Program-made: the position numbers and the translations under genes
Part shown: positions 1,948 through 53,909 of the stretch, piece by piece
How the letters are laid out: the number at the start of each line of letters is the position of its first letter
Numbering within the stretch: position 1 is the first letter of the stretch
The notes under the pieces: model-generated
Told to the model about the DNA's origin: nothing
Databases searched by the model: none
What the model saw: the letters and a program-made list of their open reading frames with translations, nothing else
NCBI GenBank assembly: GCA_021786105.1
Contig: JAJYNW010000016.1
Coordinates: 1-60,576, forward strand
DNA from: a bacterium
Lineage (GTDB): Bacteria > Patescibacteriota > Microgenomatia > Daviesbacterales > UBA10151
Reading direction: 5' to 3'
DNA length: 60,576 bases

Positions 1948-3117
1948 ATGAGTTTAAAAGTTGGAATTATAGGAATGCCCAATGTGGGGAAAAGTACCCT
2001 TTTTAATGCCCTTTTGAAAAAGAGGGTGGCTTTAAGTGCTAATTACCCGTTTGCTACCATTGAGCCGAATGTGGGGGTGGTGGCGGTGCCTGATTCTAGG
2101 TTAAATGAGCTGGCGGAATTGGTAGCTGTGGAGGAGGGAATGATCCCGCAGGAGATCCTGAAACAAGTTCAGGATGACACCCCTGGGGTGGAGGCACAAA
2201 AATATTTTCCCCCGATTGTGCCGGCAGTGGTAGAGTTTGTAGATATTGCCGGTTTAGTTAAAGGTGCGGCAACTGGGGCAGGATTAGGGAATAAATTTTT
2301 ATCTCATATCCGGGAAGTGGATGCAATTGTGCATGTTTTACGGGATTTTGAAGATGCCAATATTATCAGGGAAGGCTCAGAAAACCCAAAATCAGATAAA
2401 GAGATCATAGAAACAGAGTTAATCCTGGCAGATATTGAAACAATAGATAAATTAATTTCTTTTGCAGAAAAAGAATTAAAGTTCTCTAAGGATCCTTTAG
2501 ACCCTAAAAAATTAGAGATTTTAAAAAAGATTAAAGAAGATTTAGATAAGGGAACTTGTATAGGGGATAAATTAATAAAAACCGCTGAAGGTATGGATCA
2601 GAGAATGCGGGGCTGGATTACTACGTTACCTCTTTTATCAATTAAACCGGTTTTATATGTTTACAATGTAGGAGAGGATCAATATAGTCAAATATCCTCC
2701 GATCGTGGTACAAATGAAAATGAAATGGCTATTTCAGCCAAAATGGAAGAGGAGTTAGCTGATTTGTCAGATGAGGAGAGGTTGGAATACTTAAAAGAGT
2801 TAGGGGTTGAGGAAACTGGTTTGGAAAGGCTGATTAAAAAGGCTTATGTTTTACTCGGATTAATTTCCTTTTTGACAGCCGGCAAAAAAGAAGTCCGGGC
2901 CTGGACTATAAAAAAAGGAACTTTGGCTCCCCAGGCTGCTGGGGTAATCCATACTGATTTTGAAAAAGGTTTTATTAGAGCTCAAGTTGTTAGCTTTGAA
3001 AAATTAATTGAAGCAGGATCTTTAGCAGTTGCTAAATCAAAAGGCTGGGTGAGGACTGAAGGAAAAGATTATATTATGCAGGATGGAGACGTGGTGGAGT
3101 TCTTGATCAGTTCTTAG
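1948..3117 (+). CDS. ychF: Ribosome-binding ATPase YchF
   Basis: GMPNVGKST, ANYPFATIEPN, DIAGLVKGA, C-terminal TGS domain (GKDYIMQDGDVVEF). Confidence 0.97.
   Translation: MSLKVGIIGMPNVGKSTLFNALLKKRVALSANYPFATIEPNVGVVAVPDSRLNELAELVAVEEGMIPQEILKQVQDDTPGVEAQKYFPPIVPAVVEFVDIAGLVKGAATGAGLGNKFLSHIREVDAIVHVLRDFEDANIIREGSENPKSDKEIIETELILADIETIDKLISFAEKELKFSKDPLDPKKLEILKKIKEDLDKGTCIGDKLIKTAEGMDQRMRGWITTLPLLSIKPVLYVYNVGEDQYSQISSDRGTNENEMAISAKMEEELADLSDEERLEYLKELGVEETGLERLIKKAYVLLGLISFLTAGKKEVRAWTIKKGTLAPQAAGVIHTDFEKGFIRAQVVSFEKLIEAGSLAVAKSKGWVRTEGKDYIMQDGDVVEFLISS
2152..2190. repeat. Two abutting palindromic repeat modules inserted in frame in ychF
   Basis: gagatcctgaaacaagttcaggatgac (2152-2178) then cacccctggggtg (2178-2190); encodes EILKQVQDDTPGV. 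Confidence 0.75.
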
Positions 3118-4121
3118 CCTTGCAAGGCTGGTTCTTTTAAGGCTATCTCGTAATATACCCCTTTAGTATTACCCCGTTTTTTAATTAAGTCCTGGTCCTG
3201 TAATTTTTTTAAATCGTATCGTAAAGTTCGTTCATTAATTGCTACGAACCTTCTTCTGATTATGTCAAAGCTAACTGATTTATGGTCTTTAATGATATTT
3301 AAAATCTCAGCGCGTCTGGGTAACAGTAAGTCTTCAATATCTACTTTTTGTTTTTCTAAGACTAATTTTTTAGCATTTTCAGCAGTTTCAGCTATAGCTT
3401 CTAACATAAATTCCAAATAATCTGTCACATCTTTTTCCGGTTCATTTAAAACCTGATAATATTCACTACGGTGGTTATCTAAATATTCCTCCAGTGCTAC
3501 TAATCCTTTCATTCCGTAATTGCCTTTTACTAAAACTGCCTGCAGCAGCAATCTGCCTACTCGGCCATTTCCATCTAAAAAAGGATGGATTTTTTCAAAA
3601 ATGAAATGGGCCAGGCAAGCTCTAACAGGAGTAAATTGCTCTTTTGGACTATTCGCAAATTTTAATAAACGTTGGGTTAAAGGAAGGATTTGGGAGGGTT
3701 TGGGAGGTAAATAAATTGCGATCCCCGCCGAATTAAATATCGCTTCCAAACCAGTTCTGAATTTTCCTGAATCCTGCTTATCTGTGAGTCCCTCCATCAC
3801 CATTTTATGCAGCTCTAAAATATCCTTAATATTTAGATCTTTGTATTTTTTTTGATGGATCCAGTTTAGGGCCTTAAGGATATTAAAAACCTCGGCTTTT
3901 TTTTGACTCTTGGAGGGATTTATTTGAATTTCCTTCATGGTGAGAGGGTTACCTTCAATTCGAGCTGAAAACAAGGAGCTTTTTAAAGTTGAATTTCTGC
4001 GAATGTTTATTTCTAATTCTGGTGGAATATCTACTGAATTAATTACTTCTTTTGAGGCTTCAATTGATTGAAGGAATTGAGAAATTTTAGCTGTAAGGAT
4101 ATATTTAGGAGGAATTAACAT
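3114..4121 (-). CDS. Fic family protein with C-terminal DeoR-like winged HTH
   Basis: Intact Fic motif HPFLDGNGRVGR; C-terminal INERTLRYDLKKL...KRGNTKGVYY. Confidence 0.92.
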   Translation of the reverse strand: MLIPPKYILTAKISQFLQSIEASKEVINSVDIPPELEINIRRNSTLKSSLFSARIEGNPLTMKEIQINPSKSQKKAEVFNILKALNWIHQKKYKDLNIKDILELHKMVMEGLTDKQDSGKFRTGLEAIFNSAGIAIYLPPKPSQILPLTQRLLKFANSPKEQFTPVRACLAHFIFEKIHPFLDGNGRVGRLLLQAVLVKGNYGMKGLVALEEYLDNHRSEYYQVLNEPEKDVTDYLEFMLEAIAETAENAKKLVLEKQKVDIEDLLLPRRAEILNIIKDHKSVSFDIIRRRFVAINERTLRYDLKKLQDQDLIKKRGNTKGVYYEIALKEPALQG

Positions 4122-4126
4122 ATATT

Positions 4127-4166
4127 CCTAATATTACCAGATATTACCTAATGTTGTCAGATATTG
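4127..4166. promoter_or_regulatory. Imperfect 20-bp tandem repeat over the fic promoter (candidate operator)
   Basis: cctaatattaccagatatta / cctaatgttgtcagatattg, 16/20 identical, directly upstream of the fic ATG. Confidence 0.45.
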
Positions 4167-4190
4167 CTAAATAATTCCTGAATTGATTGG

Positions 4191-4247
4191 AGAAAAGATA
4201 ATATTATCCAGGATGTTGATGTGGTGGAGTTTTTGGTAAGCAGTTAA
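4191..4247 (+). pseudogene. Degenerate duplicate of the last 19 codons of ychF
   Basis: RKDNIIQDVDVVEFLVSS* vs GKDYIMQDGDVVEFLISS* (3061-3117); 44/57 nt identical, no gaps. Confidence 0.85.
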
Positions 4248-4278
4248 TTGGGATTTTTATGCTAAATTCCCTTTGGTA

Positions 4279-5079
4279 TTAAGTTTGGGTGATTTTGTTT
4301 ATTCGTGTTTTAGGCCTGTAAGCTTCAGGGGCTAATTCAAGCATGCTCTCGTAAGCCCATTGGTCAATGTCCCCCTTAATTTTTCCTCTTTTAACAGTTC
4401 TGCCTAAAGTAAGAGTATATTTCCTCCATAAGTTAAGACCTTTTAGGTTTGAGTAATCAGTTACTCCTTCAATTTCCAACCCTACCGAGAAAACAGGTAT
4501 CTTGTCGGGATTTACGCCTTTTTCTCCTGCCCGATCCATCAGTCGGGAAAGAGGGCCTCCTCTAAACGGGCGAAGCGAATCTCTTCTTCCGCCTTGGGGG
4601 GCCAGAAAGACTAAGCCGCCTTGTTCTAATTCTTCAATTGAAGTATCCAGATAGTCATTCATTGCTTCGGTTGGATTAATGTTCCGCCAGGGAATAGGTT
4701 TACCTTTCGTTTTGAGTTCGTTCTCTTTTAGTCTGGTGTCTCCGGTAATGATGGTTGCCAAACTAACATCGCCAAGTCCGCATAGTATGTCCAGATAAAA
4801 AGGTCTCTGGTGTGCTGCAATAGGAATCCTAGTCGGTCGTCTTCTGGCTTCTTTGCTATTAAGATTTAGAGCTACTAAATCTGCCAAAAAATCTCCTTTG
4901 GAAAAATGCGGTGTTAAACCAATTGCTCCGTTGCCTTCGGCAAGTGCTTCGTTGAGCGCTGTGAGATTCCCAGCGGCCGCTTCCCTGAATTCAATGGACC
5001 ACAAGGTTTTTAATCCATAAGCAGTAACTACTCTTCTGACGGGGGTGACTATATTTTTAATTCTTTCTAAATCCGCCAT
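4279..5079 (-). CDS. PlsC-like (lyso)phospholipid acyltransferase, divergent
   Basis: HX4D motif PHFSKGD and block-III-like VFLAPQGGR. Confidence 0.7.
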   Translation of the reverse strand: MADLERIKNIVTPVRRVVTAYGLKTLWSIEFREAAAGNLTALNEALAEGNGAIGLTPHFSKGDFLADLVALNLNSKEARRRPTRIPIAAHQRPFYLDILCGLGDVSLATIITGDTRLKENELKTKGKPIPWRNINPTEAMNDYLDTSIEELEQGGLVFLAPQGGRRDSLRPFRGGPLSRLMDRAGEKGVNPDKIPVFSVGLEIEGVTDYSNLKGLNLWRKYTLTLGRTVKRGKIKGDIDQWAYESMLELAPEAYRPKTRINKITQT

Positions 5080-5165
5080 AATTTATGGGATATATTACTT
5101 GAGTGATGGGGTGAAATCAAGTCGGTTGGTTGATTTCCGCAGGGGATTAAGTATAATGACTGATT

Positions 5166-6089
5166 ATGCAAATCGAATTAGACTCAAGGTCATTATTTGA
5201 AAGATATGTTGCTCCTCGTTTTGACGAGATGGTGCATCTGAATGTAGATCCAGCAGTAGGCGAAGAATATGTAGAATTAATGGCTAAAGGCGGCAGGCCG
5301 GTCCTTTATGGGAATCATCAGGGGCACGGGGACGGGTGGCTTTTAGGTAAAGTTGTAGAGTATTTAAGAGAAAAAGCTAAGGAGGCAGGAGTAGAATTTC
5401 CCGGTGTTGTTTTACCTCTTGCTCGGTCAATGTTTACTGGAGACCAAGGATGGGTTCTTAAAAAGATAACTGAATTATCGGCTCCTATTCTACAGAGAAG
5501 AGGATTGCATATGATTCCGTATACAAGAAATAAAGACGAAATAAATTATGGATTAAAGAAAAACCAAGCCGAGGTAAGAGAGATGGCTAAAGCAGCAAGA
5601 GAGGGCTATGGTTTTTGTTACTTACCAGAAGCGAGTATACAAGGGGGCAGACACAAACATTTTTGGGGATTTTTCCTGGGTGGAGAAGTAAATGGTGTAA
5701 TAGCTGCTGATGATAAAGACGGGTTTGCCGGTTTTTACGATTTGATTAACAGATTTGGTCATGTTAAAGGAGAGACATTCTTTATGGGTGTTGCAATGGA
5801 AGGAAGCTATCGGTTTATGGGAGCAGATATTCCTATTCCAACTATGGAATTGTTTCAAAGCTTATTTGCAGATTCATCTCGTCCTGCGCAAGTTACTATA
5901 GAAAGCCCCATTACTGTAGCAAGATTGAAGAGTGAGCTCCAAGAAGATTGGCGGGCAGATGGTCATCTCCTTAATAAATTTTTGATGAGATCGGTAGTCA
6001 AAGATCTTCCCCTTGCTTCGAGGGGGATTTATCGTAATATGCCAGATTTAGAGTTTGCAGCTAAACCTGCTGTGTTGAGCAGCCGTTAA
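5166..6089 (+). CDS. PlsC-like acyltransferase, divergent
   Basis: HX4D motif NHQGHGD and CYLPEASIQGGR. Confidence 0.65.
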   Translation: MQIELDSRSLFERYVAPRFDEMVHLNVDPAVGEEYVELMAKGGRPVLYGNHQGHGDGWLLGKVVEYLREKAKEAGVEFPGVVLPLARSMFTGDQGWVLKKITELSAPILQRRGLHMIPYTRNKDEINYGLKKNQAEVREMAKAAREGYGFCYLPEASIQGGRHKHFWGFFLGGEVNGVIAADDKDGFAGFYDLINRFGHVKGETFFMGVAMEGSYRFMGADIPIPTMELFQSLFADSSRPAQVTIESPITVARLKSELQEDWRADGHLLNKFLMRSVVKDLPLASRGIYRNMPDLEFAAKPAVLSSR

Positions 6090-6135
6090 TCTACGGGATT
6101 GAATTATAGGCATTATCCTAGTACAATTACACACA

Positions 6136-6417
6136 ATGAATTCATATTATTTAACATTAGTTATAAAACCTGACTTGGAAGAGAAGGACCGGAAGGATCT
6201 GTTGGACTCTCTTGTTAAAAAGCTAGTGGGAGAAGACGGCAAAGTGGAAAAGGAAGATTTGTGGGGAGCCCGTTCTTTGGCTTACCCAATCAAAAGGCAA
6301 ACCTCAGGTTACTATGCCCACTATGAAGTTCAGGCTGATCCTAAAAATGCCAAAATTCTTGACAAAAGTTTAAAAATGGAAGAAGATATTTTACGATACC
6401 TGCTTGTGAGAAAGTAA
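6136..6417 (+). CDS. rpsF: 30S ribosomal protein S6
   Basis: EDLWGARSLAYPIK, EDILRYLLVR; rpsF-ssb-rpsR order. Confidence 0.97.
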   Translation: MNSYYLTLVIKPDLEEKDRKDLLDSLVKKLVGEDGKVEKEDLWGARSLAYPIKRQTSGYYAHYEVQADPKNAKILDKSLKMEEDILRYLLVRK

Positions 6418-6423
6418 ATTGAG

Positions 6424-6921: not shown

Positions 6922-7006
6922 AAAGTCTCCAATTTTAAATTCATTTAAAAATTTTTATTTTGTATCTATTGATGTAGAAGTAGATTTAATATATAATCTC
7001 CAAAAT

Positions 7007-7327: not shown

Positions 7328-7349
7328 TTTAGTGGTACACTAGATAGAT

Positions 7350-9133: not shown

Positions 9134-9154
9134 GCTATCCAACAGTTTGAATTC

Positions 9155-12183: not shown

Positions 12184-13075
12184 TTAAGTCTCCTTCTAAG
12201 ATTTTATCCAAATTATGCCAGGATTTGCCGATCCGGTGGTCAGTTACCCGGTTTTGGGGAAAATTGTAAGTCCTGATTTTTTCTGCCCTTTCACCGGTTC
12301 CCACCTGAAGGGCTCTTTGTTCCTCAATATTGCCAACCTTTTTTTGCTGTTCTATTTCCCAGATTTTGGAACGTAACAAGCTTAAGGCGTTTTCCCGGTT
12401 TTGCAGTTGCGATCTTTCAGTTTGACAGGTAACGACAATCCCGGTGGGAATATGTTTTAGCCTGACGGCTGTTGAGACTTTATTAACATTTTGCCCGCCG
12501 GCTCCGCCTGAGCGGAAAGCTTCAAATTCAATCTCAGCCGGATTGATGGTAACTTGAGCTGGAGTAACTTGTGGCAAAACGGCCACCGTGGCGGTAGAAG
12601 TGTGAATTCGGCCTCCGGATTCAGTAGCGGGTACTCTTTGTACCCGATGAACACCGGATTCAAATTTTAGCTTATTGTATGCATCTTTTCCGGCAATTTT
12701 GAGTACAATTTCTTTGATCTGTCCCAGCTTGCCTTCTGACCTGTCTAGCTCTTCTGTTTTCCAGCCTTGGTTTTGAGCAAATCTGGTGTACATCCGAAGC
12801 AAATCTCCGGCAAAAAGCCCGGCTTCATCTCCACCGGCAGCTGACCGGATTTCCAAAATTGCCACATTGGGATTGACCCCGGATTCCGGGTCGGTTTCAT
12901 CTTCTTGCGGTTGGGTATCCGAAGCAGAGGACTCTAAAACTTGCTTTTGGCTCTCCAGTTCTTTAATCTCTTCTGCTGCCAGTTCCGCCATTTCCGGATC
13001 CTCAAGTAACGGCCGAATATCCTTAATCCGCTGGCTCAATTCATCTATTTGTTGCTTTAAGTAATCGTTGTTCAT
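12152..13075 (-). CDS. prfA: Peptide chain release factor 1
   Basis: GGQ motif, [26 protein letters not shown]; start set at MNNDY (13075) because the longer frame runs through a repeat element. Confidence 0.95.
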
Positions 13076-13123
13076 AAGAAAATCTTGCGAGCTAATCGCT
13101 CTTAGGATTATTATACCTTTTAT

Positions 13124-13200
13124 GTCATTGCGAGGTCGAGACTTCGACCCGTGGCAATCTTCCATGGGCGTGGAAGATTCCTCACTACGTTCGGAATGAC
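13124..13200. repeat. GTCAT...ATGAC dimeric palindromic repeat (CGTC-REP/RPE-like), intergenic
   Basis: gtcattgcgaggtcgagacttcgacccgtggcaatct ... agattcctcactacgttcggaatgac. Confidence 0.85.
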
Positions 13201-13589: not shown

Positions 13590-13734
13590 TAATCTAATTA
13601 CTAATTAATCTAATTTCTAAAGAATAACTAATGAGTAAATTACTATAGAGCGATTAGCTCTCAAGCTTTGCTTATTTAGACATTAGGACATTTAGTCATT
13701 AATTAGAAATTAGTAATTAAAAATTAGAAATTTT
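13590..13734. repeat. AT-rich imperfect inverted repeat built from CTAATT(T/A)-like heptamers
   Basis: ctaattactaatt...ctaatttctaa on the left; ttagaaattagtaatt...ttagaaatt on the right. Confidence 0.55.
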
Positions 13735-17580: not shown

Positions 17581-17682
17581 AGGTGCACTATATTGTGATA
17601 ATTGAATATAAATTGTTTGACAACTGCTTAGTTCAATGACGAATTAGGAAGTCTGTGGTATATTATTCTTGTAGACGTGGAC

Positions 17683-17784
17683 TATAATCGCTTGCGATTA
17701 CATCGCGACGCTTCTTGTAACGCGTTGCGTTATAATCGCTTGCGATTACATCGCGACGCTTCTTGTAACGCGTTGCGTTATAAT
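17683..17784. repeat. Perfect 2 x 48-bp tandem duplication upstream of manC
   Basis: tataatcgcttgcgattacatcgcgacgcttcttgtaacgcgttgcgt at 17683 and 17731, plus a third tataat at 17779. Confidence 0.92.
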
Positions 17785-17804
17785 TCTTCGTTATTACTCG
17801 AATT

Positions 17805-18887
17805 ATGAAAATTGTCATCTTTGCTGGCGGAGTTGGAACCAGGTTGTGGCCGCTATCACGTAAGAATACCCCTAAGCAATTTGAAAAGGTAATTGACGAT
17901 AAATCGATGCTGCAGATTTCCATTTCCAAAGTGTTTCCGGATTTTGACTGGAGTGACATTTATATTTCGACCAATAAGCAATATGAGCAAATACTTAAAA
18001 GTCAGTTCCCGGAAATCCCCGAGTCAAATCTGATTTTTGAGCCAGCCATGCGCGATGTAGGTCCGGCAGTGGGCTTGGTTATTGCTAACTTTATGAAGAA
18101 AAATCCGGATGAGCAAATAGCCATACTTTGGGGGGATCACCTGATTAAAAAAGACGATGAATTCAGAAAAGCTTTGAAAATTGCGGAGAAACTCAGCCAG
18201 GACGATCCGGAGAAGATTATTTTTGTGGGACAAAAACCCCGGTTTGCCAGTGTGAATTTGGGTTATATTGAATTTGGCAGCGAGGTTAAAAAGGAAGGGG
18301 AAACTCCGGTTTATGAATTTAAAGGTTTTAAATACCGGCCCGATGAGAATTTAGCCCGAAGTTTTTTAGCAGACGGTCAGCATGCTTGGAACTTAGGTTA
18401 TTTTGTGACCACCCCCAAATTTTTGTGGAAGTCTTATGAAAAGTTTGCCCCCGGTCTTTTTGAGAAATTAAGGTTAATTTCGGATGCAGTAGGGACGGCG
18501 GGCTACGAAAAATTTGTCGATGAAGTTTACCCGGCCATGGAAAAAATTTCTTTTGACAATGCCATTTTGGAAAAGCTGGATCCGGCAAACGGCTTGGTAT
18601 TATCAGTAGATATTGGCTGGAGCGATATTGGGGCTTGGGAGGCATTAAAAGAGGCTTTGGCCAAATCCGAAGATGAAAATGTGATTAAAGGTAATGTAGA
18701 GCTGTTGGATTCAACGGATAATTTGGTATTTAACTATAACGGCCAGCTAATTGTGGGGATTGATTTAAAAGGGATGCTCGTCATCAATACCGGAGACGTT
18801 TTGCTGGTTTGTCCAAAGACTTCAGTCCCCAAAATTAAAAAATACGTGGAGAGTTTAGCCGGTACCCCTAACGAGAAGTTGGCTTAG
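17805..18887 (+). CDS. manC: Mannose-1-phosphate guanylyltransferase-type nucleotidyltransferase
   Basis: AGGVGTRLWPLSRKNTPKQF, SFDNAILEK, WSDIGAW. Confidence 0.9.
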   Translation: MKIVIFAGGVGTRLWPLSRKNTPKQFEKVIDDKSMLQISISKVFPDFDWSDIYISTNKQYEQILKSQFPEIPESNLIFEPAMRDVGPAVGLVIANFMKKNPDEQIAILWGDHLIKKDDEFRKALKIAEKLSQDDPEKIIFVGQKPRFASVNLGYIEFGSEVKKEGETPVYEFKGFKYRPDENLARSFLADGQHAWNLGYFVTTPKFLWKSYEKFAPGLFEKLRLISDAVGTAGYEKFVDEVYPAMEKISFDNAILEKLDPANGLVLSVDIGWSDIGAWEALKEALAKSEDENVIKGNVELLDSTDNLVFNYNGQLIVGIDLKGMLVINTGDVLLVCPKTSVPKIKKYVESLAGTPNEKLA

Positions 18888-22306: not shown

Positions 22307-22558
22307 TTAATTATAGATATTAGCTCGGTGGCCAGCGGCGAGAATATGTATTATTTTGTCTTCCTTGTTAACTTTGTAGATGATCCTATAAATTCCGATT
22401 CGATAAGAATATCTATTGGTTAATTCTCTGGATAAGGATTTTCCAACTAAGGGATTTTCCTTAATTTCTTCTAAAGCCAGTCCGATTGCTGATTGATGAA
22501 GCTTTTTAATTTTTCCGAGCTCTTTTTTGGCCTTAGCGGTTAATTTAATCTTATACAT
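22307..22558 (-). CDS. RelE/ParE family toxin
   Basis: 83 aa, YSYRIGIYRIIYKV; overlaps the antitoxin. Confidence 0.9.
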   Translation of the reverse strand: MYKIKLTAKAKKELGKIKKLHQSAIGLALEEIKENPLVGKSLSRELTNRYSYRIGIYRIIYKVNKEDKIIHILAAGHRANIYN

Positions 22559-22826
22559 TTATTCCGAGCTCTTTTTTAACCTCTTCCCAGTCATATACTT
22601 TACCTTCTTCAATATCTTTCTCTCCTTGTCTGATAGCTTTCATCAACTTCTCGTCAGCTAAGATCTCATTGGTTTCTTTCCATGACTCATATTCATCCAC
22701 AGACATCAAAACGGCGGCAGGCTTGCCGTTAACAGTAATAATATATTCATCCCAGATTTTATTGGCTTTATCAACTAGATTGGTTAATTTCTCTCTTGCT
22801 TCAGTAATAGGTAAAGTTTTAACCAT
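22551..22826 (-). CDS. Phd/YefM family antitoxin
   Basis: ITEAREKL, IITVNGKPAAVLMS. Confidence 0.92.
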   Translation of the reverse strand: MVKTLPITEAREKLTNLVDKANKIWDEYIITVNGKPAAVLMSVDEYESWKETNEILADEKLMKAIRQGEKDIEEGKVYDWEEVKKELGINV

Positions 22827-23588: not shown

Positions 23589-23702
23589 GTCATTCCTGCG
23601 AAAGCAGGAATCCAATTATCCGAACATAGTGAGGATAATAGTCCACGTCTATTAACCATTTAAGCTTGTGTTTAATTGGATCCCGACATTCGTCGGGATG
23701 AC
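23589..23702. repeat. GTCAT...ATGAC dimeric palindromic repeat, intergenic within the ABC operon
   Basis: gtcattcctgcgaaagcaggaatcca ... tggatcccgacattcgtcgggatgac. Confidence 0.88.
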
Positions 23703-24533: not shown

Positions 24534-25115
24534 TTAGCTTATCATATTTAACTTTTGAATTTTGGCTTTAAATTCCTCCAAGGTGCCGTTGTTTTCGATC
24601 TTAATGTCGGCTTTTTTGGAAATTTGGGGAATGTCTTTTTCTGCTTTGGATTTTTCTTCTTTTAAAAATTGCTCAAAGGTCAGCCCAACTTCGCCGACTT
24701 TTTCACTTCTGGTCTTTAACCTTTGGTATCTTAATTTTTGGCCGGCGGTAATATAAATTAGAGTACTGTTTTTAAAGCTTCGAACTAATCTGGCTTCAGC
24801 TTCACGTCTGACTCCGTCAAAAATCACAATGTCAGCAGTATCGCCTTCAACGGAAAACTTGGCCGCTTTAGCCAAAGCTGTCTGGCCAAAAGTTTCACTC
24901 ATCATTAAGGCCAACTTTTGTAAATTGGCTCTGGTGATGGGAATATCCCACATAATTAAAGTTTCGGCCAAAATATCGGAAAACCTTACCTGCCTAATTT
25001 TTAATACCTCCCCTTTGTCATTGCGAGGACTGTAGGACGAAGCAATCTGTTTTATAAAATTGACAAAGGTTTGCTTGCCGGATCCTTTTTCGCCCACTAA
25101 ACCAAAAATTTGCAT
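24534..25115 (-). CDS. P-loop NMP kinase / dephospho-CoA kinase-like protein
   Basis: GLVGEKGSGK, FDGVRR, ADIKIENNGTLEEF; contains a repeat-derived insertion. Confidence 0.75.
   Translation of the reverse strand: MQIFGLVGEKGSGKQTFVNFIKQIASSYSPRNDKGEVLKIRQVRFSDILAETLIMWDIPITRANLQKLALMMSETFGQTALAKAAKFSVEGDTADIVIFDGVRREAEARLVRSFKNSTLIYITAGQKLRYQRLKTRSEKVGEVGLTFEQFLKEEKSKAEKDIPQISKKADIKIENNGTLEEFKAKIQKLNMIS
25017..25048. repeat. Half GTCAT-family repeat in frame in the kinase gene
   Basis: gtcattgcgaggactgtaggacgaagcaatct; its reverse complement is 31/32 identical to 34196-34227. Confidence 0.88.
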
Positions 25116-31349: not shown

Positions 31350-31432
31350 TGCCGAGGGAGGGAGTCGAACCCTCATGATCTTGCGATCAATAGATTTTGA
31401 GTCTATCGTGTCTACCATTCCACCACCTCGGC
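31350..31432 (-). tRNA. tRNA-Leu(CAA)
   Basis: Acceptor stem GCCGAGG/CCTCGGC, anticodon arm ATAGA-CTCAAAA-TCTAT, long variable arm, GGTTCGACT; CCA not encoded. Confidence 0.96.
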
Positions 31433-31509
31433 AATTTAACTACTTGAGGCATTATACCAATTTTAGCTTTACGAAGAAAGAATAAAGAGATGCTTTATTT
31501 TATGTCTGT

Positions 31510-31534
31510 ACAAATGTCCTCCGGCCGTGGTACA
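31510..31534. repeat. 25-bp direct repeat, left copy (inverted arms acaaatgt/acatttgt span 31510-31539)
   Basis: acaaatgtcctccggccgtggtaca, identical to 32041-32065. Confidence 0.93.
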
Positions 31535-31544
31535 TTTGTGATAA

Positions 31545-32039
31545 ATGACTAGGTTTCCTAGCAAGCGAAAGGCTTTAACTGATTTAGTTTTACTCGCTTT
31601 GGAGAAATCAGTTGATGGTTATGTGAGTTTTGAAGATTTTATCTATAATCCTTTGCTGGAAAGACCGGTTAAGAAACCAGCTCTTTCCCAAGTAATTAAA
31701 CGATTAAGAGAAAAAGGTTTTATTGAATTTGTAAAGGATGAAGAATTGATTTTACGATTAACAGATTCCGGTAAAGATAGAGCATTGTGGGCAAAAATGA
31801 GAAGTGGAGATGAGAAATGGGATGGTAAATGGAGGTTGGTGGTTTGGGATATTCCAGAGAAAAGAAGACAGGCTCGCGATTTGTTAAGGTTTAAATTGAA
31901 ACAGCTAGGATTTAAACAATGGCAGCAAAGTATTTGGGCTTCAAAGATAAACTGCACAAAGCTATTAAGAGATTTTATTAAGCAAGTCGGGATAGAGGAT
32001 TGGGTGATGGTAATTGAATCTGATAATATTGGGAATTGA
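31545..32039 (+). CDS. wHTH plus Cas2-like (PaaX central domain) protein
   Basis: ALSQVIKRLREKGFI...LRLTDSGK then WDGKWRLVVWDIPEKRR...LKQLGF...QQSIW. Confidence 0.88.
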   Translation: MTRFPSKRKALTDLVLLALEKSVDGYVSFEDFIYNPLLERPVKKPALSQVIKRLREKGFIEFVKDEELILRLTDSGKDRALWAKMRSGDEKWDGKWRLVVWDIPEKRRQARDLLRFKLKQLGFKQWQQSIWASKINCTKLLRDFIKQVGIEDWVMVIESDNIGN

Positions 32040-32040
32040 G

Positions 32041-32065
32041 ACAAATGTCCTCCGGCCGTGGTACA
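32041..32065. repeat. 25-bp direct repeat, right copy
   Basis: Separated from the stop codon by 1 nt; identical to 31510-31534. Confidence 0.93.
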
Positions 32066-32157
32066 AATGAAATATAAAGGATTTAGATCGGGTAAGACTG
32101 GACAAGAGATTGTGATTTAGGTAAAGTACCAAACAGAATTAAGGAAAGGGGTAAACT

Positions 32158-34746
32158 ATGAAAAACAAAGTTAGATTACCGGTACATGTTAAACCCCAGC
32201 GCTACAAAATTATGCTCCGGCCGGACCTTGAGCAGTTTACCTTTTACGGCGAAGAAACAATCGAATTGTTGCTGGATAAACCCGCTAAGCAAATCACTCT
32301 CCACTCAGCTGAGCTGGAAATAGATTCAGCAGAATTCATCCATCAAGATAAACAGGTCTGGGCAGGTAGGATCTCCTATGATGTTAAAGCTGAAACCGCC
32401 ACCTTTACTTTTCCCAAAACTCTTCTCAAAGGCAGAGGGCAGCTAAAACTAATGTTTAGGGGAATTTTAAATGATAAAATGCGGGGTTTTTACCGTTCAC
32501 GCTATGAAGTGGGCGGAGTTTCAAAACATATCGCGACCACCCAATTTGAATCGACTGATGCCAGGCGGGCTTTTCCTTCTTTTGATGAGCCTTCACAAAA
32601 AGCTATTTTTGATGTGACTTTAATGGTGCCGGCTAATTTAACCGCTATTTCAAACACTATGGAATCTAATGTGTTGGAGCATGAAAGCGGTTACAAAACT
32701 GTTGAATTTGCCCCTACCCCAAAAATGTCTACCTATTTGCTGGCCTTTATTGTGGGAGATTTTGAATATATTGAAAAAGAGACTGAAGATAAAGTCAGGG
32801 TCAGAGTTTTTACCACTCCTGGTAAAAAAGCCCAAGCCAAGTTTGCGTTAGATGTGGCAGCCAAATGCTTGGAATTTTACAATGATTATTTTGGAATTAA
32901 ATACCCGCTGCCCGTACTTGACATGATTGCTATCCCGGATTTTGCAGCCGGAGCCATGGAGAATTGGGGAGCGGTAACTTACCGGGAATCCACTTTGTTG
33001 ATTGACGAAGCCAGTTCCTCTTCAGCCAATAAACAATGGGTGGCCATGGTGATTGCCCACGAACTGGCCCACCAGTGGTTTGGTGATTTGGTTACTATGG
33101 AGTGGTGGACTCATTTGTGGTTAAACGAAGGCTTTGCTTCGTTCATTGAATATTTAGCTGTAGATCATATCTTTCCGGAGTGGGATATCTGGACTCAATT
33201 TGTAGCTACCGAGTTGTCTGATGCTTTTGAGCTGGATTCGTTAAAAAATACGCACCCGATTGAGGTGGAAGTAAAAAATCCGGCTGAAATTTCCGAGATT
33301 TTTGACCGGGTGTCATATTCCAAGGGAGCTTCGGTTTTAAGAATGTTGTGGAAGTATTTAGGGGAGAAGGATTTCCAAAAAGGTTTGCAGTATTATTTGA
33401 AAAAACATGCCTACGGTAATGCCCAAACTGAAGATTTATGGCAAGATTTGGAAGAAAAATCCGGTAAACCCGTCAAAAAGGTAATGAAAAACTGGACCTT
33501 GCGGGCGGGACACCCGGCGGTAAGGGTACAGGTAACAGGCAACAGGCTACTGTTAAAACAGAGTAGATTCTTTTCTAGTCCAATCTCTAAGAATCAAACT
33601 AAGGATAATACAATTTGGAATATTCCGGTGAGAATAGGAAAGGAGCAGTTTTTGCTGGATAAAAAATCTATGTCCATTCCCAACCAGGGAGAAAAGTTAA
33701 ATAGCGGGGAAGTATCTTTGGTCCGGGTGGATTACCCCCGAGATTATTTGTATGGATTGGAAGATTCAATAAAAAGCGGTAAATTATCTGCTCCGGACAG
33801 GTTGGGACTAATTAGGGATAGCTTTGATTTGGCTCAATCAGGTAATTCCCCGACCACTTTAGCTTTGGAGCTGGCTTTAAATTATATAAACGAGGAAGAC
33901 TACACAGTTTGGTCAACACTCACCGGGCACCTTAGTCAGTTGGACAGCTTATTGGCGTATGAGGATTTCTACGAAGATTTTAGAAGCTTTGGCAGAAAAA
34001 TTTACAGCGGAATTGCCGAAAAATTAGGTTGGGAAAAGAAAAAAGGGGAAAAGCACACCGACGGATTGCTTCGGGGCATAGTGTTATATAAATTAGGCTC
34101 TTTTGGAGAGTTGGAAACAATCAAAAAAGCCCAGGAATTATTTTCCTCCTCCCGTCATTCTGAGCGATTAGCGAAGAATCTTCCACGATCGGAGAAGATT
34201 GCTTCGTCCTACAGTCCTCGCAACGACAAGGGTATTGATCCGGATCTTCGCAGCCTGGTTTATAACCTGGTGGCTCAAAATGGCAGCACCAAAGAATTTA
34301 ATACTTTAGTTAAGATGTACAAAGAGGCAGATAACCAGCAGGAAAAAGACCGGATTGGCCGCAGTTTAGGTTTATTCCCGTCTAAAACTATTTTGCAAAA
34401 GGCTTTGGATTTTGCCATTTCCAAACATGTCAGATACCAAAATAGTTTGCAGATAATTGCTTCGGTCTGGAGTAATCCTCAGGGGCGGTATTTGGCCTGG
34501 GAATTCGCTAAAAAGAACTGGAAACTACTCAAAGAAAGGTATGCCGGCGGACATTATTTTACCCGGGTTTTCGCCCCGGCAGGCGAGTTTACCAAAAAAG
34601 AAGATGCCAAAGATATTGAAAGGTTTGTGAAGATTAACCCGGTGCCTGAGGCCAAAAGAACCATTGCTCAAGCCTTGGAGCAAATTTATTCCAATGCGGA
34701 GTGGTTAAAAAGGGATAAGGATAAGATTAAAAATTTTTTAGGGTAA
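32158..34746 (+). CDS. pepN: M1 family aminopeptidase with ERAP1-like C-terminal domain
   Basis: GAMENWG, HELAHQW...E (HEXXH-18-E), YSKG. Confidence 0.96.
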   Translation: MKNKVRLPVHVKPQRYKIMLRPDLEQFTFYGEETIELLLDKPAKQITLHSAELEIDSAEFIHQDKQVWAGRISYDVKAETATFTFPKTLLKGRGQLKLMFRGILNDKMRGFYRSRYEVGGVSKHIATTQFESTDARRAFPSFDEPSQKAIFDVTLMVPANLTAISNTMESNVLEHESGYKTVEFAPTPKMSTYLLAFIVGDFEYIEKETEDKVRVRVFTTPGKKAQAKFALDVAAKCLEFYNDYFGIKYPLPVLDMIAIPDFAAGAMENWGAVTYRESTLLIDEASSSSANKQWVAMVIAHELAHQWFGDLVTMEWWTHLWLNEGFASFIEYLAVDHIFPEWDIWTQFVATELSDAFELDSLKNTHPIEVEVKNPAEISEIFDRVSYSKGASVLRMLWKYLGEKDFQKGLQYYLKKHAYGNAQTEDLWQDLEEKSGKPVKKVMKNWTLRAGHPAVRVQVTGNRLLLKQSRFFSSPISKNQTKDNTIWNIPVRIGKEQFLLDKKSMSIPNQGEKLNSGEVSLVRVDYPRDYLYGLEDSIKSGKLSAPDRLGLIRDSFDLAQSGNSPTTLALELALNYINEEDYTVWSTLTGHLSQLDSLLAYEDFYEDFRSFGRKIYSGIAEKLGWEKKKGEKHTDGLLRGIVLYKLGSFGELETIKKAQELFSSSRHSERLAKNLPRSEKIASSYSPRNDKGIDPDLRSLVYNLVAQNGSTKEFNTLVKMYKEADNQQEKDRIGRSLGLFPSKTILQKALDFAISKHVRYQNSLQIIASVWSNPQGRYLAWEFAKKNWKLLKERYAGGHYFTRVFAPAGEFTKKEDAKDIERFVKINPVPEAKRTIAQALEQIYSNAEWLKRDKDKIKNFLG
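34154..34227. repeat. Full GTCAT-family dimeric repeat in frame in pepN
   Basis: gtcattctgagcgattagcgaagaatct...agattgcttcgtcctacagtcctcgcaacgac; encodes RHSERLAKNLPRSEKIASSYSPRND. Confidence 0.9.
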
Positions 34747-44992: not shown

Positions 44993-44996
44993 AGTT

Positions 44997-48725: not shown

Positions 48726-48739
48726 TTTAAATTATAACT

Positions 48740-49582: not shown

Positions 49583-49594
49583 AAAAGAAGTTTA

Positions 49595-51115
49595 ATGAGT
49601 GCACTGTCTGCCTCTAATAGTATAAATCATTCTCAGCTTGCATTAGTAGCATTTTTTTTTCTAAGTTTTGCCATTTTTCTATACTTTCTTAAAAAGATAA
49701 ACGATAAGACAAAGCAGCTCTCGAGGCAAAATCAGTTATTGTTGGCTATTCAGGAGTTAGATCGAGTGATTTTAACGAAATCAGTTACTAGTATTGATAT
49801 ACTTGCCCAAGAAGTAGTTGATTTGGCTCAAGAAAAATTAGGATATTTTTTTGTGACAATTGCCTTGGTCGATTCCTCTGTAAACGGAATTCGAAGAGTT
49901 GCTATATCCAAAACCCCTGGTTTAGAGAATATAAGACAAATTTTACACCTTCCTATAAATCAACAAATAGTCCCTTTCGGAACTATTGACAATTTATTTA
50001 TCAAAGCGATAAATGATCATAAAAGTTATAGTTCTCCCCAATTATTTGATATTCACAGAGGTGTTTTTTCTCAGGCAGTTTCAGATCAAGTTCAAAAGAC
50101 TTTAAGAATCAGAGGAGTTTTTGTTTATCCTTTAATTGCTAATAATAAAGCCTTTGGTGTTATTGCTTATGGTTCTGGTAAATATGAAAAAGATTTTACA
50201 CAATTTGACGTTTCTATTATGAAGGATTTTGCAGCAGAAGTATCTAGATTTTTAGATCACGTATTGCTTTACCAAAACCTGAAAGAAACCTCTCGAAAAT
50301 TAGCAATAGCCAATGAGAGACTTAAAATAATAGATCAGCTTAAGGATGATTTTGTGTCAATTGCTTCGCATGAACTGAGAACTCCCATGACTGCTATCCG
50401 TTCTTATGCCTGGATGGCTTTGCATAAAGCTGATGTGCCCTTGTCGGAAAAACTGCAAAAATATTTAGTCAGGGTTTTGTTGTCAACCGAGCGCTTGATT
50501 AATCTGGTTAACGATATGCTTAATGTTTCCAGGATTGAATCAGGCAGGATTGAAATTAACCCTGAGGCAGTTGATCTGCACGCGCTAATTAAAGATATTA
50601 TCGACGAGCTTTATTTTTCTAAATCACAGGAAAAACAAATCCAGTTTGTGGTATTGGAAAAACAGGTGCCCAAAGCCTTCGGGGATCCGGAGAAATTGCG
50701 GCAGGTATTTCTTAATTTGGTAGGTAACTCTTTAAAATTTACCCCCAATGGCGGTAAAATTATCTTTGACTTCTTTTCTGACGGTCAGATAGTAGAAGTT
50801 TCGGTTTCAGATACCGGAGTCGGGATATCAAAAGAAGATCTTAGCAGGCTATTCCATAAATTCTCAAGACTCGATAATTCCTATACAGCAGCCGCCACCT
50901 CCGGCGGTACCGGTTTGGGATTATATATTTCTAAAAATTTGATAGAACTGATGCATGGCAGGATTTGGGCTTCATCTGAGGGTGCGGGTAAAGGAACAAC
51001 TTTTACTGTGGCTTTGCCGGTAGCTACTAAAGATAGAATTGATCACGCCAGTGAATATGCCGTCAAGCCAAAGGAGGGAGAAGCTAAGCCGTTGGAACCG
51101 GTGGCGGTAGTATGA
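49595..51115 (+). CDS. GAF-domain sensor histidine kinase
   Basis: TM, GAF, SHELRTP, NLVGNSLKFT, DTGVGI, GTGLGL. Confidence 0.95.
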   Translation: MSALSASNSINHSQLALVAFFFLSFAIFLYFLKKINDKTKQLSRQNQLLLAIQELDRVILTKSVTSIDILAQEVVDLAQEKLGYFFVTIALVDSSVNGIRRVAISKTPGLENIRQILHLPINQQIVPFGTIDNLFIKAINDHKSYSSPQLFDIHRGVFSQAVSDQVQKTLRIRGVFVYPLIANNKAFGVIAYGSGKYEKDFTQFDVSIMKDFAAEVSRFLDHVLLYQNLKETSRKLAIANERLKIIDQLKDDFVSIASHELRTPMTAIRSYAWMALHKADVPLSEKLQKYLVRVLLSTERLINLVNDMLNVSRIESGRIEINPEAVDLHALIKDIIDELYFSKSQEKQIQFVVLEKQVPKAFGDPEKLRQVFLNLVGNSLKFTPNGGKIIFDFFSDGQIVEVSVSDTGVGISKEDLSRLFHKFSRLDNSYTAAATSGGTGLGLYISKNLIELMHGRIWASSEGAGKGTTFTVALPVATKDRIDHASEYAVKPKEGEAKPLEPVAVV

Positions 51116-52602
51116 TTTCCGGATTTACCCTTTTCATTGTTTTATATGGATTCATTTTAATTGCTTTGTTGGTTTTTGTGCTTGGCAGGATCAGCGCGCC
51201 CCGGATTTCTCCCGGGTCCTATCAAAATAAATTACTTGTTGCTCTTAGGCACCTGGGGATTGCGGCTATCCCTATTACAGAAGTTGAACCGGCCTGTCAG
51301 GAAATAGTTGATATTATCCGTGAAGAATTAGGCTACCTTTTCGGGTCAATTGCCCTAATAGATCATGAAGGCGGCGGTTTAAGGAGGATTGCCATATCCA
51401 GTTATCCTGAAATGGATAGAATTATTAAAAGTTTGCCAATTGAATATAAAAAACAGGTAGTGCCGTTTGATCAGTCAGATAATTTACTTATTCAGTCTTT
51501 GCAGCAAAGAAAAGTTTTATACAGCGAACGTTTGTATGATGTCCAAAAAGGCATCTTTACGCCGGAAATTTCCGACCGCCTTCAAAAGGAACTCAAAATT
51601 AAAGGACTGTTCGTTTATCCGTTATATACCAAACAGGGGCTGGCTGGGATAATTTATTATTGTACTTTTGTTGAGAGAAAGAAATTTTCCTCGTTTGAAT
51701 TTGAGATTATGGATGAGTTCACCAGGGAAGTATCTATGGTGTTGGATAACGTGTTTCTCTATCAGCATTCAAAAGAATCTGCCGCTCAACTGATGGAGGC
51801 AAATAAAGAACTTAAAGAGGCTGATAAGCTTAAAGATGATTTTGTGTCAATTGTCTCGCATGAACTGAGAACTCCCATGACTGCTATCCGTTCCTATGCC
51901 TGGATGGCTTTGCATAGATCAGATATGCACCCTTCAGAAAAAATGACCAGGTATTTAATCAGGGTAATGCTGTCAACCGAGCGTTTGATTAATTTAGTCA
52001 ACGATATATTGAATTTGTCCAGGATTGAATCAGGTAAAATTGAAATTGATCCGGAGGCAGTTGACCTCTATCCATTAATCAGGGATATTGTTGATGAGGT
52101 TTATTTCTCTAAATCTCAAGAGAAGCAAATTCAGTTTGAAGTACTGGAAAAGGATATCCCTAAAGTTTTTGCTGACCCCGGAAAGTTGCGGCAGGTGTTT
52201 TTAAACATTGTGGGGAATGCCTTAAAATTTACCCCTCATGACGGTAAAATTATTTTTGATTTTTCTTCTGACGGACAAATGGTAGAAGCTTCGGTTTCAG
52301 ATACCGGGGTGGGGATAGCAAAAGAGGATATCAGCAGGCTATTCCATAAATTCGGCAGGCTGGATAATTCTTATACATCAGCTGCAACTTCTGGCGGAAC
52401 AGGTTTAGGATTATATATATCCAAAAATCTGGTGGAACTAATGCATGGCAGGATTTGGGCTTCATCTGAGGGTGCGGGTAAAGGAACAACTTTTACTGTG
52501 GCTTTGCCGGTAGCTACTAAAGATAGAATTGATCACGCCAATGAATATGCTGTCAAGCCAAAGGAGGGAGAAGCTAAGCCGTTGGAATCAGCGTCAATAT
52601 AA
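51112..52602 (+). CDS. GAF-domain sensor histidine kinase (tandem paralog)
   Basis: Same architecture, SHELRTP, NIVGNALKFT, GTGLGL. Confidence 0.95.
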   Translation: MISGFTLFIVLYGFILIALLVFVLGRISAPRISPGSYQNKLLVALRHLGIAAIPITEVEPACQEIVDIIREELGYLFGSIALIDHEGGGLRRIAISSYPEMDRIIKSLPIEYKKQVVPFDQSDNLLIQSLQQRKVLYSERLYDVQKGIFTPEISDRLQKELKIKGLFVYPLYTKQGLAGIIYYCTFVERKKFSSFEFEIMDEFTREVSMVLDNVFLYQHSKESAAQLMEANKELKEADKLKDDFVSIVSHELRTPMTAIRSYAWMALHRSDMHPSEKMTRYLIRVMLSTERLINLVNDILNLSRIESGKIEIDPEAVDLYPLIRDIVDEVYFSKSQEKQIQFEVLEKDIPKVFADPGKLRQVFLNIVGNALKFTPHDGKIIFDFSSDGQMVEASVSDTGVGIAKEDISRLFHKFGRLDNSYTSAATSGGTGLGLYISKNLVELMHGRIWASSEGAGKGTTFTVALPVATKDRIDHANEYAVKPKEGEAKPLESASI

Positions 52603-52705
52603 TAGTGGTTTTTATTTGCGGATTTGTGGTATAAAGAAATTATATACATGACTGATTTACAAATATGAAAAAGATTCTTGTTTCTGAGAGAAAGAGGATT
52701 TGAGC

Positions 52706-53080
52706 ATGGCGAAAATACTCATAGTTGAAGATGATCAGTTTTTAAGAGAGTTCTATGAAGAACTTTTGCAGGGAGAAGGGTATATTGTAGATACAGCTGA
52801 AGATGGGGCAATTGGTTTATCGAAATTACAAAACGGTGAATTTGATTTGGTGCTTCTTGATATCATGCTTCCCAAAAAAGACGGGGTGCAAATTTTGAGG
52901 GATTTACAAGTGGCCCCGCCTAAATCTGCGAATATCGCGATTGTTGTCCTTACTAATTTGGGTCAGGAATCACTGATAAAGCAGTGCTTTGATCTGGGGG
53001 CAGAAGGGTATTTGATTAAATCCGCCTTAAATCCCGACCAAGTGCTTACTGAGATCAGAAGCTATCTTCAAAAGGGCTAA
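52706..53080 (+). CDS. Stand-alone response regulator receiver
   Basis: ILIVEDD, LLDIMLP, LTN, YLIK; ATG at 52706. Confidence 0.93.
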   Translation: MAKILIVEDDQFLREFYEELLQGEGYIVDTAEDGAIGLSKLQNGEFDLVLLDIMLPKKDGVQILRDLQVAPPKSANIAIVVLTNLGQESLIKQCFDLGAEGYLIKSALNPDQVLTEIRSYLQKG

Positions 53081-53082
53081 TA

Positions 53083-53835
53083 ATGGTCCCAAAAATTATT
53101 TACCAGGATGACTATCTTTTGGTTTTGGATAAACCTCCCGGGTTGGTAGTAGATACTGCTGAAACTGTTAAACAGGAAACCTTAGAGGATATTTTAAAAA
53201 GAGATTTTAATATTCAAATAGTTCGCGGCGGGATTGTTCACAGACTGGATAAAGATACCTCAGGAATTATACTGGTGGCAAAAACTGAAAAAGCCTTGGA
53301 AAATTTACAGGCACAATTTAAAGAAAGAATCACCAAAAAAGAATATTTGGCTTTGGTTCATGGTTTAGTGACCGAATCAGGGGTGGTGGAGGGAAGTATC
53401 GGAAGGAATCCGGGAAATAGAGAAAAGTTTATTGTCTTGGAGGAAGGTAAGGAAGCAGTAACAGAATATGAACCTGTGGAGCGGTTGCAGCTGACGGGTG
53501 AGAGGTTACAGGAAATTTTTCCTGATTTTAATAAAATCCAGATGAGGAAACTGGAAAAACAGCGTTACGGGGAATTTACCTTGCTGCGGTGTAAGCCCAA
53601 AACTGGACGGACCCACCAAATTAGGGTACATTTAAAATATATAAATCACCCAATTGTGGCCGATGAAAAATATGCCGGCAGAAAAACATACAGGTTAGAC
53701 AAAAGATGGTGCCCAAGGATGTTTTTGCATGCCCAAAAAATTGGTTTTGAACATCCGGCAACAGGGGAATGGATGGAGTTGGAAAGCAGTTTGCCGGAAG
53801 ATTTGAAGAAAGTGCTAAATGTATTGTCATCCTGA
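53083..53835 (+). CDS. RluA-family pseudouridine synthase without S4 domain
   Basis: VHRLDKDTSG, TGRTHQIRVH, IVADEKY, MFLHA. Confidence 0.95.
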   Translation: MVPKIIYQDDYLLVLDKPPGLVVDTAETVKQETLEDILKRDFNIQIVRGGIVHRLDKDTSGIILVAKTEKALENLQAQFKERITKKEYLALVHGLVTESGVVEGSIGRNPGNREKFIVLEEGKEAVTEYEPVERLQLTGERLQEIFPDFNKIQMRKLEKQRYGEFTLLRCKPKTGRTHQIRVHLKYINHPIVADEKYAGRKTYRLDKRWCPRMFLHAQKIGFEHPATGEWMELESSLPEDLKKVLNVLSS

Positions 53836-53909
53836 GCGAAGCGAAGGATCTTAAGACTAAAAAGGAATCTAGAGATTCTTCGGGTCGAGGCTTCGACCCT
53901 CAGAATGAC
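53826..53909. repeat. GTCAT-family dimeric repeat overlapping the rluA-family stop codon
   Basis: gtcatcctgagcgaagcgaaggatct...agattcttcgggtcgaggcttcgaccctcagaatgac. Confidence 0.88.

Follow-up and report, generated by a model that had tools for sequence, protein, structure and literature searches.

How did short palindromic repeats come to lie within and between the genes of an ultra-small bacterium, and which enzyme could have spread them? This question is raised by contig JAJYNW010000016.1 (assembly GCA_021786105.1) of a genome that homologues assign to Candidatus Daviesbacteria, in the Microgenomates group of the candidate phyla radiation (CPR). The contig was analyzed over its positions 1 to 60,576 (60.6 kb, hereafter the window). 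A preliminary description had flagged six copies of a single palindromic GTCAT...ATGAC repeat family with interchangeable hairpin modules, and had regarded the family as active and moved by an enzyme encoded elsewhere, possibly a GIY-YIG nuclease. These repeats prove to be genuine, small DNA insertions that form hairpins. They fall into two sister families that never pair together, and they belong to a class of elements already described in Neisseria, Rickettsia, and numerous other bacteria. With a probability of about 0.7, we consider them to be non-autonomous hairpins of the CGTC/TGTC-tagged repetitive extragenic palindromic (REP) superfamily, related to the NTS motifs of the Ssn nucleases and spread by a mechanism in which such a nuclease takes part.

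Hairpin Arms of the Window

Ten hairpin arms are spread over all six flagged sites. A strict arm definition recovers nine of them, compared with 0.12 expected from 300 dinucleotide shuffles (maximum 2), and the string GTCATYSNGMG matches five times against 0.24 expected, a number reached by none of 100 shuffles, so that the copies far exceed what shuffled sequence yields. The tenth arm, which carries a GTCGT tag and lies at 34197-34227, is found by relaxed rules only, and the relaxed scan of the window gave zero copies beyond these ten. A match at 5962 is probably due to chance and was rejected by the strict arm definition. In all arms the YGTC is followed by AT and three further bases, by a middle part that varies, by the complement of those three bases with AT, and by a closing C. 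The YGTC tag is present in all ten (eight TGTC, two CGTC), and the GTC before the palindrome as well as the C directly after it are found in every arm of the window, irrespective of the two arm types, A and B, that are distinguished below. The basal stems covary among the copies (ATTGC/GCAAT, ATTCT/AGAAT, ATCCT/AGGAT, ATTCC/GGAAT, ATCCC/GGGAT), and position -1 is a pyrimidine in about 95% of the 733 arms collected from all loci.

At four sites two arms form a pair with the tags outward (GTCAT...ATGAC), namely at 13124-13200, 23589-23702, 34154-34227, and 53826-53909, and such pairs are also able to fold as one long hairpin. The other two sites, 2154-2178 (minus strand) and 25017-25047, hold single arms. 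Hence repeat units do occur at all six flagged positions, but palindromic pairs at only four of them, and the element at 34154 ends at 34227. As single-stranded DNA, the elements at 13124 (z score -6.8), 23589 (-5.7), and 53826 (-3.3) fold far better than shuffled sequence. An Rfam scan of the window returned only a tRNA, and a literature search with the repeat sequences gave primer matches only.

Two Families That Do Not Mix

The 733 arms comprise 337 of type A and 396 of type B. Type A arms have a perfect stem of at least 7 bp, a short loop and the tail ATC-CA (C in 85%, A in 92%). In the window they are represented by three arms with a perfect 8-bp stem at the sites 2154 and 23589, of which both 23589 arms have the CCA tail, whereas the 2154 arm ends in ATC-TC. 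Type B arms consist of five Watson-Crick pairs followed by tandem G·A mismatches (5'-GA/3'-AG), and their tail is ATC-T/C then C/A, without the conserved A. They come in a short form of about 26 nt, topped by a tiny hairpin such as GCGAAGC, and in a long form of 32-36 nt with a nested hairpin. Seven arms of the window are of this type, at 13124, 25017, 34154, and 53826.

Among the tags-outward dimers of all loci, 53 are A+A and 27 are B+B, and not one is mixed, which is also true within loci that contain both types. Types A and B co-occur in the genome of the window and in the loci L003, L016, L048, and L050 (L-numbers stand for DNA loci of relatives or other genomes, P-numbers for homologous proteins). 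The B+B dimers mostly combine one short and one long arm, as at 13124, 34154, and 53826. Instead of one family with interchangeable modules there are thus two families, with 0 of 80 dimers mixed and heterodimers frequent only within each of them. A covariance-model alignment that mixes both arm types brings the 3' halves out of register. The shared inner hairpin that had been reported earlier, GGTCGA-GRCT-TCGACC, does occur in the left arm of 13124 and the right arm of 53826, both of which are type B.

Relation to Known Palindromic Repeats

Units of this kind have been described as CGTC-tagged REPs, whose tag is often TGTC, whose stems of 8-9 bp start with AT, and which have loops of 4-5 nt and a CCA tail (Di Nocera, De Gregorio & Rocco 2013, BMC Genomics 14:522; PMC3733652). 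Dimers and heterodimers are frequent among them and have spacers with complementary ends. They lie at gene ends as well as in frame in housekeeping genes, they include Neisseria dRS3 and Rickettsia RPE-4 and RPE-6, and no transposase was found by the authors (PMC3733652). The likeness to CGTC-type REPs and RPEs noted in the preliminary description is correct: the window elements have the YGTC tag at one end, AT-first stems, units of 20-40 nt, and heterodimers with structured spacers, and they share the gene-end position, the in-frame housekeeping copies and the presence of different REPs at one gene site across related species. Stems of 8-9 bp with loops of 4-5 nt are found in the three type A arms (2154 and both of 23589). 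The seven type B arms also start with AT, but continue after five Watson-Crick pairs with the tandem G·A and then with two pairs or a nested hairpin. As far as a comparison by text description goes, type B differs from the CGTC REPs by this 5-bp stem with tandem G·A, by the long nested hairpins and by the missing CCA tail. A further difference is the host, since the window comes from a CPR bacterium. The Rickettsia palindromic elements (RPEs; Ogata et al. 2000, cited in PMC3733652) are similar in that they are palindromic repeats in frame in essential genes and are translated as extra loops. However, RPE-1 is longer and unrelated, and among the RPEs only RPE-4 and RPE-6 count as CGTC REPs; the RPE likeness is one of behavior and not of membership.

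The closest link to an enzyme comes from Neisseria, where the NTS (CGTCATTCCCGCGMAVGCGGGAATCYRG) is bound and cut by SsnA, a single-domain GIY-YIG protein of 94 amino acids whose gene is typically bracketed by the NTS motif (Chenal et al. 2025, Nat Commun 16:2388; PMC11893778). SsnA acts on single-stranded DNA only and cuts a few nucleotides upstream. The C behind the palindrome contributes most to binding, and the three nucleotides in front of the palindrome contribute most to cutting. Removal or extension of the loop is tolerated and loop identity is dispensable (PMC11893778), and this tolerance accounts for the seemingly interchangeable modules in the upper parts of the arms. The window arm CGTCATTCCTGCGAAAGCAGGAATCCA at 23589 is nearly the NTS consensus, and the variable loop as well as the hairpin-gene-hairpin layout, the latter at Ssn-like genes in relatives, are further common features. 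On the other hand, only 2% of the Neisseria NTS lie within genes, compared with three of the six window sites, type B arms have no Ssn linkage, and there is no ssn gene in the window.

Small GIY-YIG Nuclease Genes Bracketed by Type A Arms

A search with a GIY-YIG consensus retrieved thousands of GIY-YIG proteins of 93-100 amino acids, two of them from Daviesbacteria. The label Ssn-type rests on protein size, the single GIY-YIG domain and the arm-bracketed layout. We analyzed 82 Ssn-type loci, comprising the two of Daviesbacteria and 80 others with one genome per species from many phyla. Up to 100 bp from the Ssn-type genes there are 10 arms per kb, compared with 0.1 per kb beyond 800 bp, a 100-fold difference. 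An arm lies within 250 bp in 78 of the 82 loci and on both sides in 61, mostly with the tags outward. In Daviesbacteria L003 the arm TGTCATTCCCGCGTAGGCGGGAATCCAGG lies 7 nt upstream of the ssn start codon and a tags-outward dimer follows past the stop, and in Daviesbacteria L004 the arm past the ssn stop, GTCATTCCTGCGAAAGCAGGAATC, is identical to the left arm of the window dimer at 23589. A second small GIY-YIG clade (SYYIGST...RHNQGRSKYTK) was taken as a control, and none of its 80 metagenome loci has an arm within 100 bp. Three Ssn-type gene calls (P0176, P0218, P0201) run into the flanking arms and thereby acquire N- or C-terminal extensions such as IPAYAGMT...LRGND, a recurrent annotation artefact.

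The link between this enzyme and the type A arms (2154, 23589) is well supported, and the early guess of a GIY-YIG nuclease holds for them, given the bracketed Ssn-type genes in relatives. It does not extend in the same way to the type B arms (13124, 25017, 34154, 53826), which show no such linkage and for which an Ssn partner may be proposed by analogy only. From the gene-repeat geometry it may be proposed that Ssn spreads the repeats. A mobilizing enzyme outside the window, as proposed earlier, agrees with the Ssn profile, which found no match in any of the six frames of the window. In the source metagenomes the arm of L006 is hugely abundant, and ssn fragments are also present, which are not assignable to this genome.

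Another candidate for the mobilizing enzyme would be a Y1 tyrosine transposase of the IS200/RAYT type, which would make the repeats REPIN-like elements. The REPINs of the RAYT system (GTAG REPs) are similarly non-autonomous inverted doublets of short hairpins that fold as one hairpin, and their single-copy enzyme gene is bracketed by the same units; moreover, Daviesbacteria L003 has a Y1_Tnp gene at a distance of 2 kb from its Ssn gene. Yet this gene, the only one seen, has no arm within about 1 kb, and no Y1 gene is present among the scanned open reading frames (ORFs) of the window. The tag is YGTC and not GTAG, the associated gene encodes a GIY-YIG nuclease, whose role in mobilization is putative here, and not a Y1 HUH transposase, and no CGTC units were found flanking any tyrosine transposase gene by Di Nocera et al. 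(PMC3733652). Movement by a Y1 transposase is therefore extremely unlikely.

The Six Sites and Their Empty Counterparts

Gene identities at the sites were taken from Pfam, and the contexts are as originally claimed, with three copies in frame, two intergenic, and one overlapping a stop codon. For four of the loci (13124, 23589, 25017, 34154) empty counterparts are present in relatives, as the comparison of filled and empty sites suggested in the preliminary description reveals. The repeats have thus been inserted into this lineage at gene junctions and in permissive protein loops, where they are translated.

The dimer at 13124-13200 (type B, tags outward) lies between the stop codon of the L31 gene and the start of a peptide-chain release factor gene. 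It consists of a long arm at 13124-13159 (+) with the inner hairpin GGTCGA-GACT-TCGACC, the spacer TTCCATGGGCGTGGAA, and a short arm at 13176-13200 (-), and its predicted single-stranded fold has -24.1 kcal/mol. The distance from the L31 stop to the release factor start is 132 nt in the window and 3 nt in the relative L319. At the same junction L316 (3395-3470) has a short remnant, GTCATCGAGG, followed by the shared GGTATAATAAT, and L318 (2244-2262) has the short remnant ATTCCGAAGGAATC; judged from their sequences, both look like decayed or partly deleted arms. The long release factor ORF that starts within the 13124 element probably has a false N-terminal extension. The L31 gene together with this element is bracketed by a 29-nt inverted repeat (90%; 13074-13102 and 13647-13675), which may be a tagless relative or belong to another palindrome family, since it contains GAGCGATTAGC, the string atop the left arm of 34154.

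The type A dimer at 23589-23702 (tags outward) separates an ABC permease gene from its ATPase gene. Its arms, 23589-23612 (+) and 23679-23702 (-), each have an 8-bp stem and a 4-nt loop, and the 66-nt spacer has the complementary ends CAATTA/TAATTG. At the empty site of the relative L320 the permease and ATPase genes overlap (TTGACTGA), whereas in the window they are separated by the 114-nt dimer and further unshared flanking bases on both sides, and the ATPase starts with an ATG downstream of the dimer instead of the overlapping TTG. A ParE/Phd toxin-antitoxin pair is located at 22307-22826, between dnaB and the ABC genes; in L320 the ATPase gene directly follows dnaB.

The single long type B arm at 25017-25047 (+) is in frame in a minus-strand P-loop kinase-like gene, where it encodes IASSYSPRND. 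The L319 orthologue of this kinase (73% identical) is without exactly the ten SSYSPRNDKG-like residues, and at the DNA level the window has 37 nt in place of 7 nt, beside an AGATTGC that is already present in the empty site. In the M1 aminopeptidase gene the type B dimer at 34154-34227 (tags outward) is also in frame, with a net gain of 78 nt or 26 codons, and is composed of a short arm at 34154-34180 (+), a spacer, and the GTCGT-tagged long arm at 34197-34227 (-).

At 53826-53909 a type B tags-outward dimer is found at the end of a pseudouridine synthase gene, with a predicted single-stranded fold of -17.7 kcal/mol. The TGA stop of this gene (53833-53835) lies within the short arm at 53826-53850 (+), the long arm at 53874-53909 (-) has the inner hairpin GGGTCGA-AGCC-TCGACCC, and the next gene starts 12 nt past the element. 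Finally, the type-A-like single arm at 2154-2178 (minus strand; GTC-ATCCTGAA-CTTGT-TTCAGGAT-C; -6.1 kcal/mol, z score -3.4 as single-stranded DNA) is in frame within YchF, in which residues 59-85 make up 27 residues compared with 5 in Thermus YchF (2dby). Since this comparison is a distant one, 2154 is the least secure insertion site. The palindrome CACCCC-T-GGGGTG at 2178-2190 adjoins the arm, and both together form the extra YchF loop.

A Repeatedly Filled Site in the Aminopeptidase

The aminopeptidase site was followed through 117 homologues, of which about 77 read ...LFKKGKIDPDL... at this position, 24 have a dimer-sized insert, and 16 have shorter extras. P0099 (80% identity; locus L320) and P0032 (L321), which are the homologues nearest to the window protein when the insert columns are excluded from the tree, are empty in the protein alignment, and L317 and L319 are empty at the DNA level. 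On that host-protein tree the filled and empty states require 20 changes compared with 21.7 for shuffled labels, so that the filled state is not clustered; well-supported branches alone require at least five changes for type B and at least four for type A. These counts are rough, because many branches of the tree, a FastTree of metagenome proteins, are weak.

At the DNA level three different B+B dimers occupy the site in the window, L316, and L318, and L326 carries an A+A dimer whose left arm is the window arm of 23589. All four inserts are flanked by the same TTT/TTC codon on one side and by ATT-GAY on the other, the left junction has a TCC codon in the window, L316, and L326, and AAGG is located just outside the right tag in several copies. 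This pattern fits either repeated insertion at a preferred or permissive site or the replacement of a resident copy.

Within the genome, 25012-25048 and 34196-34232 share 95% identity along 37 nt, of which 5 nt lie past the tag, and judging from this sequence the arms 34197-34227 and 25017-25047 may well reflect recent copying. The 34197 arm with its AAGG flank also occurs on other contigs of the source metagenomes, and with four differences on a 46-kb contig whose depth equals that of the window's genome in run X2. Since the aminopeptidase with insert is identical on seven contigs (two are shown, from different sequencing runs), the insert is fixed, and no filled/empty variation within the population is visible among the assembled metagenome contigs. 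Of the activity that had been ascribed to the family, gains and losses between relatives are what the comparison suggests, but ongoing movement within the population is not visible.

Could the hairpins instead be immobile, having arisen in place as regulatory or structural elements, for example mRNA stabilizers or gene punctuation, kept by selection? The intergenic copies coincide with junctions of co-directional genes, a stop codon is provided by one copy, the start codon of the ABC ATPase just downstream of another copy is a different one (ATG instead of the overlapping TTG), and REPs act at the RNA level in other bacteria (PMC3733652). Nevertheless, near-identical arms are present at unrelated loci, in unrelated phyla, in phage contigs, and in plasmids, presence and absence at orthologous sites are scattered on the host-protein tree, and three copies lie within coding sequence. 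An immobile origin is therefore very unlikely, and any regulatory function would be secondary to insertion.

Type B Arms and the Proposed Nuclease Mechanism

In many phyla, type B arms are present within Ssn loci, but for the most part at distances of kilobases from the ssn gene. They are common in IMG/VR, with at least 120 contigs, and in related phages they are located between head, portal, and terminase genes as well as inside a portal-like gene. In L085, L213, L300, and L307 (IMG/VR) a type B arm interrupts a portal-like gene and the frame continues into the arm (...EIATPSARND). The interrupted gene and the arms in phage head-packaging modules show that the repeats also invade phage genomes. 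Moreover, type B arms are found in plasmids of Aulosira, Calothrix, Nostoc, Methylocystis, Methylosinus, Halomonas, and Novosphingobium, where all of them lie outside the annotated genes.

A partner gene was sought in the viral contigs that carry type B arms (at least 120) by a spacing histogram, cargo ORFs, profiles of Ssn and of the second GIY-YIG clade, and clustering of neighboring ORFs, with a negative result throughout. A spaced-pattern scan of viral contigs revealed no type-B-bracketed gene, and neither the tail peptides of 240 GIY-YIG proteins nor the annotated plasmid matches pointed to a type B partner. Genes for four-helix-bundle proteins (23S rRNA intervening sequence), which were considered as possible arm cargo, were not found near arms in the loci examined. 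Such genes (PF05635) do occur near the aminopeptidase region, at L318:16113-16517 and L326:2942-3198 and not in the window, and they are seemingly another small mobile gene of these genomes.

In the mechanism that we favor, hairpins would form in single-stranded DNA and be bound by a small GIY-YIG nuclease of the Ssn type, whose gene would lie in another part of the genome. The nuclease would recognize the tag, the basal stem, and the C that follows, and its cut would fall a few bases 5' of the tag. Through this cleavage and the ensuing repair or copying, copies would be spread or replaced. Several results weigh against this. The demonstrated role of Ssn in Neisseria is the restriction of transforming single-stranded DNA and not repeat movement. 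Target-site duplications, which would be expected of miniature inverted-repeat transposable elements, were not seen in the four filled/empty comparisons. The published search string for Ssn-related motifs (SRM), HGTCWYN(0-2)YYVSBRHN(0-5)WNVSBRGN(0-2)RNCYNB, has 0 matches in the window (shuffle mean 0.18), because it requires a GC-rich upper stem. With standard DNA parameters, the 34154 dimer and the short type B arms with their G·A pairs fold no better than shuffled sequence. Finally, only 3 of 22 type B arms lie within 400 bp of Ssn genes, type B arms are never paired with type A, and no gene is bracketed by type B arms in 1.2 Mb of viral contigs that carry them.

The last points also bear on the possibility that the type B arms are a separate family with a partner enzyme of their own, another GIY-YIG clade or another nuclease, which would share only the tag geometry with the Ssn system. 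The lack of mixed dimers among 80, the tail ATC-T/C instead of ATC-CA, the stem of five pairs plus tandem G·A, the regular short-plus-long architecture and the missing enrichment beside the sampled Ssn clade all speak for it, and a 110-amino-acid GIY-YIG gene bracketed by GTCATTGCGAG-type units in another genome is an unchecked lead in this direction. Yet, though they form a separate lineage, the type B arms keep the three features that are important for SsnA in vitro, GTC, basal stem, and following C, while SsnA tolerates changes of the loop and the upper stem (PMC11893778). In addition, arms of both types are found together in single genomes, and the viral contigs, the plasmids, and the GIY-YIG tails all failed to reveal a type-B-bracketed gene. 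A separate partner enzyme is rather unlikely, and the explanation that we prefer remains an Ssn-type nuclease, extended to type B by analogy.

A more far-reaching proposal has two parts. Type B would be a distinct family of many phyla and phages. In view of the aminopeptidase codon site, where different B dimers and an A dimer occur across Daviesbacteria with empty sites interspersed, the doublets would moreover integrate by a targeted, nuclease-driven route, which may return to a small number of sites again and again or overwrite the copy already present there. We put forward this combination tentatively, as it is rather doubtful.

Other Repeats of the Window

Apart from the hairpins, the window contains a perfect tandem duplication of the 48-nt unit TATAATCGCTTGCGATTACATCGCGACGCTTCTTGTAACGCGTTGCGT at 17683-17778, upstream of or overlapping the ORFs 17663-17959 and 17805-18887. 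A 39-nt direct repeat with the core TCCTCCGRYCGTGGTACAAATG occurs at 2681-2719, 31503-31541, and 32034-32072; two copies bracket a PaaX_M-like gene beside a tRNA (31350-31432), and one is inside ychF.

Implications

Ssn-type hairpin repeats are herewith extended to the ultra-small CPR genomes of Daviesbacteria. Three of the six window sites lie within essential genes and are translated, and others reshape gene junctions, where they supply a stop codon or are located at a gene that now has a different start codon. For annotation this means that the repeats cause false N-terminal extensions and spurious small ORFs. The type B family, for which no partner enzyme was found here, is frequent both in the head-gene modules of phages and in plasmids of cultured cyanobacteria and methanotrophs. 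That one exact site of a conserved enzyme has been filled repeatedly bears on whether and how Ssn nucleases spread hairpins. If type B is indeed a distinct family of many phyla and phages and its doublets integrate by a targeted route, the repeats would represent a new kind of mobile element, in which a GIY-YIG single-strand nuclease would take the place of a transposase as the driving enzyme.

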